A stretch of DNA of 64,000 bases from a bacterium (GCA_027624915.1 JAQBTR010000003.1:5627-69626), one strand, 5' to 3'; positions 38,413 to 47,646 are shown, counted from the first letter of the stretch. The notes: generated by a model not told the origin, from the letters alone. Made by a program: numbers and translations.

Positions 38413-41400
38413 TTATGTCGTTGGTGGTTCGAGCGTCTGTGGCGCTGGTTCCGAAACAATCACTGACTCAGATACTGGCTCAGGAGTTGGTTCTGGTTCC
38501 GGCGTAGGCTCTGGTGTTGGTTCTGGTTCTCCGACGTCCTCCCCGACGTCATTAGGGGTCGGGACTCCGACATCATCTTGGATGATCGTCGGAGCTGGAG
38601 TCGGAGCGGGCTGTTCAGGTTCCGGTTCTCCGACGTCTTGTGAAGTCGGAGCAGGCTGTTCAGGTTCCGACAATTCTTCTCCGGAAGAATTTTTGGGCAC
38701 GTCTGGTTCTCCGACGTCCTCTAGGGTTGGCGTAGGCTCAGACTCAGGAGTTGGTTCTGGTTCAGGCTCTGGTGTTGGTTCCGAAACAATCACTGACTCA
38801 GATACTGGCTCAGGAGTTGGTTCTGGTTCCGGCGTAGGCTCTGGTGTTGGTTCCGGTTCTTCGACGTCCTCTGGAATTGGAGCAGGTTCTTCTAACACAT
38901 CCAGCCGATCTGATGGTTCATCGGTGTAGCCCGCTGCCGTACATGTACCATCCGTGGTCTCTAGTTTACCGTCTGATACACGCACACAATATGGATTACC
39001 AGTTACGTTATCATACAATGTTATTCCGGAAGGGCTTTCTTCTCTACCGACAAAGAGCTCATCAGTTATTACTTCTTCTGCCTTAATTGTTCGCACAACC
39101 ATATTACCCTCATCATCAATTGACCAATTACCAGTTGCCGACAAAAGTGAACCAATATTTTCTATATTGTATCCACCAAGGTCTAGAGAAAGTGACGACT
39201 TAATACGTCCGGTCTCAGCATCCACTATGAATGGCTCTGATGAAGACGCACTCATAACAAATTCGGTATCTAAGTGATGCCACCCCGAGCCAATCTGCAC
39301 TAGTACTTCGCCTACTCGAACCGTTCGTGTTTCTGTTATGCCTGTTTCTGGGTCTGTAACCGAGTAATCGATTAATGTCGCGTTGTTTGAATCAAATTCT
39401 GACACAACTGTACCAATGGTAGAGCCAACACCCGTTGCCCGCTTGGCAACACCCGCGAACTCAGAACTTGTGATTTTGTCACCTGGCGTTGGCGTTCCAT
39501 CCTCATTAGATACTCGTACCCTCACCTTACCACCTAACGCCACACGAACATTTGAGTTTGTACTTGTGCCAGTAACGGTTTCAAGTGCCACACCAATAAT
39601 GTTTAAGTCGCGAGTACTCGTCGCTCGTGTCAGTCGAACCTCACCCTCACCTGTTCGACCATTACCAATAGTAAGCAGTTCACCTACATGGACATTGCCA
39701 TCAAGTGCGTATACTTCACTATTTGTTAAATCGTCCTTCTCTTCACATAAAACAACAAAACCGTTTTCGTTGTAGCAAAGTGCTCGTCCCGTACCTGTAT
39801 CAAGACTCTCAATGCTCAAGCTCCCACCAATTTTGATACCACCGACAAAAGAACTTGATTGATTACTTGTTACAGTCAGTGGTGCTGCTGATTGAAAATT
39901 TCCGCTAGCAAGTGTAATTCCATTTTGACTAATGAGCACGCTACCTGCCACCATGATTCCCTCATCAAATTCGGTCGTTGATGAACCTGCCAGCAACAAT
40001 GAGTCGCTACTTAACAAACTTGCAAGTTGTGCGAGATTATCTTCGTCAACTTGTGCAAGCTTAGTCTCCATTTCATGCGTGGTATTTACATACATAATTA
40101 CCTGGCCAAGCTCTTCGGTTCCATTATTATAGAGATCTTCGTCACCAAATAGAGCGAGAGCAACACCAAGAATGGAGCCAGAATTTGTTGCCTTCATTGC
40201 GTAACCCGGCTTGTCGGCTGATGTCAATCTATCTCCCGGCTTTATCACACCGTTGATTGTCGTAATATTGACTGGCACGCGTCCCGCAAGTGCGACGGGG
40301 ACGGCACTCACAGTATCTGATTCTTTGCCACCAATAATAAGTGCTGGTCGTGTTGGAACGACACCTAAGAGACCTGCATCGTATGCCTTGTCGCTCTTTT
40401 GTACGCCTGCTGTAAGTTCTGGGTCAATTGATACAACATCACCAAGCGTGAGTGACGAGTCATTGGTTGAGTATACTTCGGCAATGTCACCTGCATCGTT
40501 TACTTCATAGAGCGTAAAGTATATGCTTGTAACTGTTGGAGCACTACTACCGGTTCCCAAATTCGTCGATGCAGAATCAGAACAAAGAGTATATTCAACA
40601 ATATTGGTCGTTGAAACATTATCGACAAAAATTCCAGAGACACTAATACTGTCTCCTGAGAAAGTATGCTGCCCTCCCATTATTGGCCCGACCTCTGTAC
40701 TGCCAGTACATGTTGGGTCCGTACCACCTGTTGTTCTTTCAACTTGTACAGCAGGAACATCGTCACCTGTGTTAGCACCGTTGATGGTTGCGGTTACCAT
40801 AACCAAGACCTCACTTCCTGATGCAACTGTAATGTTAGGGTGTGTACCAGTCCATAAGTCTGTCGTGTCATTATCAACAATTGCGACTGCTGTTGCTGTA
40901 TCTTCAAAATAGTAAAAGTCAGGGACACTACCAGCACCTTGAGCGTCAGTTCCACAAATCAAAGCACCTGATGCGTTGGTATCTACCGTGTCACAATTAA
41001 TAAGGTTTGTTCGGAGCGCATCGGCATACACACCACCACTAAACGTTGATGTCGCGCTATTTCCACTAATAGTTGTTGTTGCAGTTCCCCCAACTGTAAT
41101 CTGAGCTCCATATGAAGAAATATTACTACCAAATACAGCTACACCGTTTGTATCAACGTTAAACTGAGAAACACCATCAGCCTGTAAGTTTATAAGGTCG
41201 CACGATCCTCCCGTACACCAACCAGAATTATTAAGATTAACTCCAATTGCCGTTCCGTATATTCCACCCCCAACAATATTATCTCCTATACGAAACATTG
41301 ACCGAGTTTGAGAAACGGTTGGCGCATTATCCTCTATAATAAGGTAATCATCAGAACTATCCCCCTCGTTCTTCAAGAATATTTGACCTGCTACCTCAAG

Positions 41401-47400: not shown

Positions 47401-47646
47401 ATTAAATAAATTTTGGCTATATACCTCGAGAACAGACTTTTTACTTCCTCTGTCTGCTGCCTGAACAGCAATATATTTACGAAGATCCTGACGTGTTGTA
47501 TGCCAGTTACGTCCAATTTTCTTAGCCTCAAGCTTCCCACGACGAGCAAGCAGACTCAAATATTCGGCACTGTATGGGGTGTCTTTTGCGGCTTCTGAAA
47601 CCGGAATATATGCAGGATTCTGTTTTTTTAATTTTCCTTTACTCAC
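38413..47646 (-). CDS. Giant 3077-aa surface protein: N-terminal HTH-like domain, one transmembrane helix, then a very large repetitive Gly/Thr/Ser-rich extracellular region.
   Basis: A single 9.2-kb ORF. The N-terminus [47 protein letters not shown] is an excisionase/HTH_17-like pattern. The transmembrane helix is [16 protein letters not shown]. Recurring modules include GGLGVGN.T.TDG..E.SGN.YAGGR.I.RG.ATSTF.GG and [21 protein letters not shown]-terminal PT-rich linkers [19 protein letters not shown] occur twice. Confidence 0.6.
38447..38858. repeat. Intragenic direct repeat: an exact ~80-bp sequence in two copies about 330 bp apart (38447-38527 and 38778-38858).
   Basis: GGTTCCGAAACAATCACTGACTCAGATACTGGCTCAGGAGTTGGTTCTGGTTCCGGCGTAGGCTCTGGTGTTGGTTC is present twice. 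Further long internal repeats lie around 42.95-43.10 kb and 43.96-44.10 kb. Confidence 0.8.

Follow-up and report, generated by a model that had tools for sequence, protein, structure and literature searches.

The subject of this report is a stretch of 64,000 nucleotides (nt) of bacterial DNA (GCA_027624915.1, JAQBTR010000003.1:5627-69626), hereafter the window, and in particular a giant open reading frame (ORF) on its minus strand at positions 38413-47646. The ORF is a single uninterrupted frame of 3,077 amino acids (aa) with a GTG start, by far the longest of the region, and it encodes, in order, a helix-turn-helix (HTH) domain, a linker, a transmembrane (TM) segment and an extracellular fibre of about 2,880 residues. 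It is collinear with its closest homologue (P0027) over residues 6-2095 and 2702-2946. Upstream lie a short palindrome and, on the same strand, a gene for a signal-peptidase-like protein of the S26 family. An earlier, preliminary description of the locus had proposed a giant protein with an N-terminal HTH, a single TM helix and roughly 2900 residues of repetitive exterior, and this outline is borne out by the frame, profile searches, hydropathy and internal repeats. Here we describe the protein, its family and the palindrome, which may be an operator recognised by the protein's own HTH.

The HTH occupies residues 11-60 (47467-47616, minus strand) and is of the winged HTH_17/MerR/excisionase type, with a basic wing (KKIGRNW), as judged from profiles, a structural model and superposition. 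Residues 16-60 score 18.5-19.7 bits against Pfam HTH_17 (PF12728; expectation value, E, 0.0011-0.0025), for which the gathering cut-off is 27 bits, and the domain also matches PHROG 1840, annotated as excisionase (E 3.4e-4). Within the family, 19 of 27 members match HTH_17 at E<=0.01, the best at 2.3e-8, and several homologues carry a precomputed PF12728 match, so that the excisionase-type pattern read earlier from the N-terminus holds at the level of the family, with the window copy a weak match. In an AlphaFold model of residues 1-340 (12 sequences) the predicted local distance difference test score (pLDDT) exceeds 90 over residues 11-60, which adopt the beta-alpha-alpha-beta-beta-alpha topology of a winged helix. 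Foldseek superposed the domain on Xis of mycobacteriophage Pukovnik (root mean square deviation, rmsd, 2.0 A over 49 columns), BldC (1.9 A over 53) and TraN (2.2 A over 53), and likewise on RacA, RdfS and SoxR at about 2 A over about 50 residues. The probabilities reached 0.96 and the E-values were weak (0.5-3) because the domain makes up only 50 residues of a 340-residue query. Residues 1-70 carry a net charge of +11. Together, profiles and model place residues 11-60 in the predicted HTH_17/MerR fold class.

The cytoplasmic linker (residues 61-174; 47125-47466, minus strand) consists of a low-confidence stretch followed by a long predicted helix (residues 131-171) with a K/R-rich end, and both its length and its sequence differ among family members. 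The TM helix had been described as lying directly behind the HTH, which needs correction, since these approximately 115 residues intervene. Hydropathy analysis yielded exactly one strongly hydrophobic segment in the protein (residues 175-193; 47068-47124, minus strand), and no N-terminal signal peptide precedes it. This single TM segment, or signal-anchor, resembles a signal peptide itself, with a basic n-region, a 15-residue hydrophobic core and the sequence PSRNLINA, followed by AD, which places small residues at -1 and -3. Eight K/R residues lie within the 20 residues preceding the segment and an acidic stretch follows it. The cytoplasmic 174 residues are basic (35 K+R versus 19 D+E), the 2,882 residues beyond the TM segment are acidic (108 K+R versus 304 D+E), and all 26 Cys residues, arranged as 13 close pairs, lie on the C-terminal side. 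This distribution of charge and Cys pairs indicates an N-in/C-out (type II) protein with a disulfide-bonded extracytoplasmic part. An N-in topology with a single TM segment and a cytoplasmic HTH is the bitopic arrangement of the ToxR/CadC type.

The extracellular region begins with a membrane-proximal part (residues 196-460; 46267-47061, minus strand) that defines the family, although it has no Pfam match and the AlphaFold model of residues 1-340 is confident only for the HTH and helices, the conserved domain after the TM segment scoring a pLDDT below 50. It is followed by a mosaic of Gly/Thr/Ser-rich modules with paired Cys residues (residues ~420-2330; 40657-46389, minus strand), which differ between homologues. 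In comparisons of fragments with the whole protein by BLAST, the mosaic repeats are 35-60% identical, with one 42-residue block at 90%. The recurring modules picked out in the preliminary description were recovered on counting (GGLGVG seven times, ICG[ST]DA four times and YAGGR three times), and IGTTSP-like motifs also occur among the Gly-rich modules. BLAST against the homologues showed that the first ~500 residues are common to most of the family, that the middle is variable, and that two C-terminal blocks (residues ~2380-2560 and ~2700-2975) recur across many of them. Whole-protein searches, and searches with eight segments, against Pfam, NCBIfam and PHROGs yielded nothing significant for the 2,880 extracellular residues.

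The two C-terminal blocks contain beta-barrel domains (residues 2388-2521, 40084-40485, and residues 2679-2789, 39280-39612, both minus strand) of which the second is a diverged copy of the first, with 38% identity between residues 2443-2510 and 2694-2757. Both were modelled with a pLDDT of about 90 within residues 2380-2915. They resemble the barrels of phi29 gp12-type pre-neck appendages and of decoration proteins, matching a "preneck appendage protein" in BFVD (E 2.5e-10, rmsd 2.3-2.7 A over ~140 columns, 25-31% identity), PDB entry 3suc, the pre-mature phi29 gp12 (E 3.1e-4), and capsid decoration proteins (probability ~1.0); the C-terminal barrel typical of pre-neck-appendage-like proteins is thus found here. 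The protein ends in a Pro/Glu/Thr-rich tail (residues 2915-3077; 38416-38904, minus strand), and the duplicated PT-rich linkers reported earlier are evident as an internal duplication in this PT/PE-rich tail, with 76% identity at the protein level and 105 nt at 95% in the DNA. Peptidase_S74 (PF13884), present in many homologues, was absent from the whole protein and from its C-terminal segments even at E<=1. An LPXTG-type, sortase-anchored adhesin was considered and rejected, the tail ending in PPTT and no [LN]P.[TSA][GNA] motif occurring anywhere in the protein. From these features we infer a long, phage-fibre-like surface structure with an adhesive, attachment role.

The gene contains exact internal DNA repeats, the longest of 83, 78, 67, 40 and 26 nt, all at spacings divisible by three, and a single tandem array with a period of 171 nt and 80% matches. 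The repeats noted in the preliminary description are therefore present, but at 83 nt or less they are shorter than a 150-nt read; its warning that the gene is assembly-sensitive is fair for the family, many related contigs ending within the gene. The suggestion of phase variation fared less well. Slipped-strand variation was rejected, the gene carrying no short tandem tract and no homopolymer of A/T >=9 or G/C >=7, which limits the basis for variation to possible in-frame recombination between the repeats.

A search with the full protein recovered 34 giant homologues of 1.7-4.8 thousand residues, the named ones from metagenome-assembled genomes of Patescibacteria; several are annotated as tail fiber domain-containing proteins, and many homologues carry Peptidase_S74. 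The conserved HTH sequence is found near the N-terminus of 30 of the 34, and nearly all have a single TM segment at residues 125-356 followed by a GTHANE motif. Proteins retrieved with the first 230 residues share the conserved HTH motif. When a profile of the HTH, linker, TM segment and membrane-proximal base was run against 1.84 billion cluster representatives, 199 matched at E<=1e-30, with lengths up to 7,920 aa and most carrying the full module. With one genome taken per species, 419 loci encode a relative, and essentially all are titled Patescibacteria or Paceibacteria, including Ryan-, Yanofsky-, Zambryski-, Kaiser-, Wolfe-, Taga-, Nealson- and Taylorbacteria; one ~2-kb contig is titled Omnitrophota, and many have the generic title uncultured Candidatus Saccharibacteria. 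The Ryanbacteria proteins are closest to that of the window, at 59-60% identity. Literature searches found no description of giant HTH-TM proteins, nor of a DNA-binding domain or operator linked to them. The family is thus widespread and undescribed in the literature found, and represents a variant of the bitopic one-component regulator idea with a different DNA-binding fold.

Small bitopic proteins of 130-300 aa, consisting solely of an HTH of this type linked to one TM segment, are encoded near giant genes, either upstream of the S26 gene (L024, L032, L036 and L045) or at other loci (L065, L070, L074, L211 and L212), and at one locus (L215) a giant homologue is split into two overlapping ORFs, one for the HTH part and one for the TM-fibre part. 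Whereas most of the giant protein is only about 30% identical across the family, its recognition helix and wing hardly vary, and a conserved DNA target is therefore predicted.

The upstream regions of related genes share an element of the form TATCCGATA-N-TATCGGATA. In the window it is represented by the palindrome TTATCCGATACGATATCGGTAA (47658-47679), with the core CCGATA-N3-TATCGG at 47661-47675, 15-29 nt ahead of the GTG codon. The core, allowing a spacer of 1-9 nt, occurs once in the 64-kb window against an expectation of 0.03. We counted the element in 80 related loci, from -320 to +60 of the predicted start, using the remaining 745 kb as background. The strict palindrome was found near the start in 63 of the 80 loci, and a relaxed pattern in 72, while the background yielded one strict site, an enrichment near the giant gene of approximately 1,600-fold. 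That lone background site lies about 80 nt upstream of a gene for a TPR-repeat protein (in L004) and overlaps a TATAAT box. In Ryanbacteria-type loci the palindrome precedes the start codon by ~14-18 nt, and in Yanofskybacteria-type loci by ~190 nt, where it stands ahead of a structured leader. Alignment of the latter places it some tens of nucleotides downstream of a TATAAT-like box, and a few S26-linked loci have a similar box upstream of the palindrome. The spacer is 3 nt in Ryanbacteria- and Yanofskybacteria-type loci and 5 nt in S26-linked lineages.

An intrinsic-terminator-like hairpin with a T-run (47705-47736, minus strand) separates the giant gene from the S26-like gene, which implies a separate promoter for the former. 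Further upstream, the sequence TTGTCCACA (47746-47754, minus strand), with TACAAA 28 nt downstream, is the window copy of a DnaA-box-like element, TT[AG]TC[CA]ACA, that occurs ~28 nt upstream of a TATAAT-like -10 box in many lineages (L002-L083); it might belong to the -35 region, or be bound by DnaA, MraZ or some other factor. As a separate observation, Yanofskybacteria-type loci (L002, L014, L046, L052, L058, L064 and others) have a conserved leader that starts from the palindrome side, ~200 nt ahead of the giant gene, and extends towards the start codon. It forms a stem with clear compensatory changes (for example CCCAGCCCCAC/GTGGGGCTGGG versus CAATCCCGCC/GGCGGGATTG), followed by a conserved GGAATGCAC and then by a second hairpin with a T-run. 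The window lacks this leader, which may represent a cis-regulatory RNA not yet described.

The association of the element with this type of HTH extends beyond the giant genes. Metagenome contigs scanned blind for ATCCGATANNNTATCGGAT yielded 120 loci, and in 38 an ORF with this HTH lay within 500 nt, the site being intergenic in every one. A few further sites were at contig ends, beside the same small MerR-type gene that neighbours many giant genes (see below), and about half of the remainder fell inside long ORFs, several on higher-GC contigs; the sites inside long ORFs are taken as chance matches. This type of HTH is also carried at the C-terminus of Fic proteins (L206-L210 and L213), a cluster relative of which is named Candidatus Aadella gelida (Omnitrophota). 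Neither a giant gene nor the small MerR-type gene lies near the Fic-HTH genes, and their promoters read ATATCGTATCGGATAG-[TATAAT]-...GTATCCGATACGATAT, such that the -10 box stands between TATCGGATA and TATCCGATA half-sites; three half-sites occur in a second Fic-HTH lineage. Two of the small HTH-TM genes and one split giant gene are preceded by the same half-sites, and L212 has additional half-sites in direct repeat about 10 nt apart. No motif was found upstream of one small HTH-TM gene (P0017) located inside an operon. Among the giant loci just one has a clearly different recognition helix (LNVLIHRDKI), and no half-site precedes its giant gene. Family members without the HTH were also sought, in which the palindrome might be lost; one candidate (P0053) is truncated at a contig edge. 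Since the element tracks the giant gene, its half-sites precede other genes with the same HTH, and the one diverged helix goes with the absence of a half-site, we favour the giant protein's own HTH as the binder of the palindrome. The distribution further suggests that HTH and operator constitute a portable, self-regulating module that has crossed phyla.

These observations can be joined in the following scheme. The host would be a Ryanbacteria-like member of the Patescibacteria, and the giant gene would give rise to a type II membrane protein whose first ~60 residues form a MerR/excisionase-type winged HTH in the cytoplasm, connected by the ~115-aa linker to the signal-anchor helix. The ~2,880 residues outside would form a fibre like a phage tail fibre or appendage, built of disulfide-looped Gly/Thr modules, two gp12-like barrels and a Pro-rich tail, and serving as a surface attachment structure. 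The cytoplasmic HTH would recognise TATCCGATA-type half-sites, which form a palindrome over the transcription start or 5' leader of the protein's own gene, and the membrane-tethered HTH would feed back on transcription of the fibre gene much as ToxR or CadC act on DNA; in ultra-small cells the DNA may lie within reach of the membrane. Taking the whole chain, from a membrane-tethered surface fibre to recognition of a conserved operator at its own gene by the cytoplasmic HTH, we assign it a probability of about 0.55, with greater confidence in the architecture and less in the regulatory logic. What is observed here comprises architecture and fold classes, the distribution of the family, and the link of the cis-element to the gene and to the HTH type; DNA binding, autoregulation and its sign, the oligomeric state and the adhesive function we infer. 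The earlier proposal, in which a transmembrane DNA-binding protein of the one-component kind bears an enormous exterior, was retained after all the tests run, with added support from the fold class, the recurrence of the architecture and the palindrome, DNA binding being putative.

In ToxR, CadC and TcpP the winged helix is of the OmpR type and the periplasmic sensor domain is small (~100-250 aa). The giant protein resembles them in its N-terminal cytoplasmic DNA-binding domain, one TM segment, extracytoplasmic C-terminal part and proposed action on DNA from the membrane, but there is no sequence relationship, and an HTH_17/MerR-type domain is joined to a phage-fibre-like exterior of 2,880 residues. 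Because its DNA-binding domain is of this type and library scans gave no Trans_reg_C (OmpR-type) match anywhere in the protein, we classify it, on sequence, as an analogue of these regulators and not as a member of their group. RodZ, with an XRE-type HTH and a small periplasmic domain, likewise has an N-terminal cytoplasmic HTH, one TM segment and an extracytoplasmic C-terminus. RodZ illustrates that an HTH in this arrangement can have a protein (MreB) as its partner instead of DNA. It is not known to be associated with an operator-like element, whereas a conserved palindrome travels with the HTH of the giant proteins.

The winged helix itself, with its beta-alpha-alpha-beta-beta-alpha order and superposition at ~2 A over ~50 residues, is shared with Pukovnik Xis, BldC, RdfS, TraN and RacA, and the direct-repeat half-sites at L212 recall the multi-site binding of Xis and BldC. 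Those are soluble proteins of 50-120 aa, whereas here the fold forms the cytoplasmic tip of a giant membrane protein. At the other end of the molecule the barrels match phi29 gp12 and tail fibres, and many relatives share with these the intramolecular chaperone Peptidase_S74; the giant protein differs in being chromosomal, cellular and membrane-anchored, amid housekeeping genes, and this copy lacks Peptidase_S74. Very large predicted membrane proteins, with a proposed role in host recognition or attachment, have been described for ultra-small episymbionts among the CPR bacteria, for example Vampirococcus lugosii (PMC8080830), a paper in which an HTH is never mentioned. The outside part of the giant protein is unprecedentedly large and phage-like.

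Several points weigh against this interpretation. The window's own HTH falls short of the Pfam HTH_17 threshold, and a profile of the HTH found no match among PDB sequences even at E<=10. DNA binding by the HTH is deduced from co-occurrence, and the difference between N3 and N5 spacing among lineages is unusual for a rigid dimeric regulator. In most loci the palindrome lies within the transcribed leader, where a role at the RNA level is possible. The terms fibre and adhesin derive from composition, repeats and homologues, and within the extracellular region it is the C-terminal barrels alone that were modelled confidently. Finally, the small MerR-type protein could be the true binder of the palindrome.

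Of the alternatives, the one that survives best concerns processing and would refine the preferred scheme more than replace it. The S26 signal-peptidase-like gene (47861-48373, minus strand; 170 aa; Pfam Peptidase_S26, 67 bits) lies directly upstream of the giant gene on the same strand. The same pairing was found in 33 of 84 loci, some of them from lineages without the priA-def-fmt synteny of the window. The TM segment might then be an internal signal peptide, cut by type I signal peptidase after INA and before AD, which would free the fibre and leave a stub of ~190 residues comprising HTH, linker and TM segment. With one stub per exported fibre, regulation would be coupled to secretion. We consider this possible but clearly short of an even chance, for the cut and for the coupling alike. 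The anatomy of a signal peptide recurs in 80 relatives (basic n-region, 14-19-residue core, Pro/Gly breaker, small residues at -3 and -1), and in most other lineages the giant-linked S26 protein is canonical, retaining the catalytic Ser (SM.P box), the catalytic Lys (KR box) and box E (GDN..S.DSR). The existence of free-standing HTH-linker-TM proteins of 130-300 aa, at one locus with the operator in front, implies that such a stub would be viable alone. In the window, however, comparison with E. coli LepB and B. subtilis SipS showed that SSMSP is kept, that the catalytic Lys is replaced by Arg (YMRRIIGLP) and that box E is gone, for which reason the protein is probably inactive; seven close relatives also lack the catalytic Ser, and the Ryanbacteria-type clade as a whole is degenerate, so that these enzymes probably cannot cut. 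The terminator and separate promoter region between the two genes also tell against the idea, and we know of no precedent for a folded N-terminal extension of 175 aa before a cleaved signal peptide. Processing is nevertheless a serious possibility for the family, and it is cleavage by the window's own S26 neighbour that is doubtful.

An unlikely alternative assigns the palindrome to the small MerR-type protein (71-74 aa, MPKKFLTVNDVARLLGVTPLTVRNWDQKGKL...) as its operator, leaving the HTH of the giant protein to tether the nucleoid non-specifically, as in RacA, or to contact a protein, as RodZ does MreB. The small gene is a divergent neighbour of the giant gene in 55 of the 84 genome loci (e.g., L002 5264-5479 and L004 5401-5625), it is 80-97% identical across many species, and the Yanofskybacteria-type palindrome falls inside the shared divergent intergenic region; RacA and BldC are, moreover, among the structural neighbours of the giant protein's HTH. 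The position of the palindrome, however, is fixed relative to the giant gene, its distance from the small gene varying between 300 nt and ~900 nt according to locus type, and it is present where no small MerR gene occurs within 6 kb, or anywhere within the 64-kb window. No homologue of the small protein adjoins the Ryanbacteria-type giant genes, and when databases were searched with it the matches were near-identical copies of the Yanofskybacteria type, in numbers that would mask any copy elsewhere in Ryanbacteria. The recognition helix of the small protein (TPLTVRNWD) bears no relation to the giant protein's, and the palindrome half-sites recur before the Fic-HTH genes, where it is missing.

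Slightly less probable again is that the inverted repeat acts as an RNA hairpin in the 5' leader, controlling translation or stability, and that the HTH has nothing to do with it. The element does lie downstream of a -10-like box in most loci, and in those that lack a long leader its distance to the start codon hardly changes (~14-18 nt); a 6-bp hairpin appears in the predicted minimum-free-energy structure, and a variable central spacer would easily fit a loop. Yet the stem is invariant, with no compensatory change or covariation, among lineages whose proteins are 35-40% identical, and it is the supposed loop that varies, the opposite of what is typical of structured RNAs. The folding energy of the window leader is no better than that of shuffled sequences (z = -0.46), and a protein-DNA site is for these reasons more likely than a plain RNA hairpin. 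Around the -10 box of the Fic-HTH genes the half-sites are separated such that a single hairpin is impossible, extra single half-sites occur close to -10 boxes, and an Rfam search of five related loci returned tRNAs only, the leader and palindrome matching no known RNA family.

The surroundings of the giant gene are those of a cellular chromosome, with priA, def, fmt, polyprenyl synthase, UbiA, an mraZ-rsmH-PBP cluster, lysS, greA and RNase R in the window, and they are syntenic with the region of the closest homologue, from Hainich groundwater. Two further readings of the ORF, as a chimera created by assembly across its repeats or as the tail-fibre gene of a prophage, can be set aside as very improbable: internal repeats are present, many related contigs break inside the giant gene and the C-terminal domains resemble those of phage appendages, but the same order of parts recurs in more than 100 independent assemblies, the closest homologue is collinear over the two long stretches given above, the longest exact repeat is only 83 nt, the housekeeping neighbours (priA, def, fmt, polyprenyl synthase and the dcw cluster) are conserved in synteny, and no phage genes were noticed among the scanned ORFs. 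On the recurrence of the family and its syntenic, housekeeping setting we regard the gene as a cellular member of a large family, neither a chimera nor a prophage gene.

Downstream, 17 nt past the stop codon of the giant gene, lies a gene for a polytopic membrane protein of 415 aa (37148-38395, minus strand) with no family match; it was not found next to the giant genes of relatives, and its membership of the system is uncertain. In several relatives the giant gene is instead followed by a gene for a TPR-repeat protein of 560-824 aa (L001 19142-20824, L002 13997-16471 and L003 16552-18936; elsewhere in the locus in L004, from 17866 to the end). Two perfect copies of TTATCCACA, 12 nt apart, occupy the intergenic positions 16702-16722 of the window just upstream of mraZ (16245-16679, minus strand), reading TGTGGATAA on the mraZ strand, and could be MraZ boxes or DnaA boxes. 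A further probable surface protein of 704 aa, with PA14 and Laminin_G_3 (concanavalin-like lectin) domains, is encoded at 61883-63997 (minus strand). Nearly all long ORFs of the window are on the minus strand and the GC skew is negative throughout, with no switch, so that the 64 kb probably lie within one replichore.

Patescibacteria make up a large share of bacterial diversity and are thought to live attached to other cells. To our knowledge, almost nothing is known about how they sense attachment and regulate their few genes. In the family described here, which no fewer than 419 genomes at species level encode, a very large surface structure is coupled to a candidate sequence-specific DNA-binding domain, and its short, nearly invariant candidate operator provides a handle on a first regulon in organisms that are mostly uncultured. 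A more speculative step, which we would put as doubtful, is that export of the fibre, or tension or contact acting on it, alters the action of the HTH at its own operator, and thus carries a signal from the surface to the genome. This could come about by a signal-peptidase cut leaving one HTH-TM "receipt" per exported fibre, or by proteolytic release upon host contact. If true, the S26 partner, mostly active and a pseudo-enzyme here, and the small MerR-type neighbour would be parts of the same circuit, and ultra-small episymbionts would have a Notch-like signalling system of their own, the bacterial equivalent of Notch. Since the paired signal-peptidase gene is alive or dead by lineage, one may ask whether giant secreted proteins can bring along their own regulators as pro-regions, and in these bacteria gene control may be coupled directly to the cell surface.

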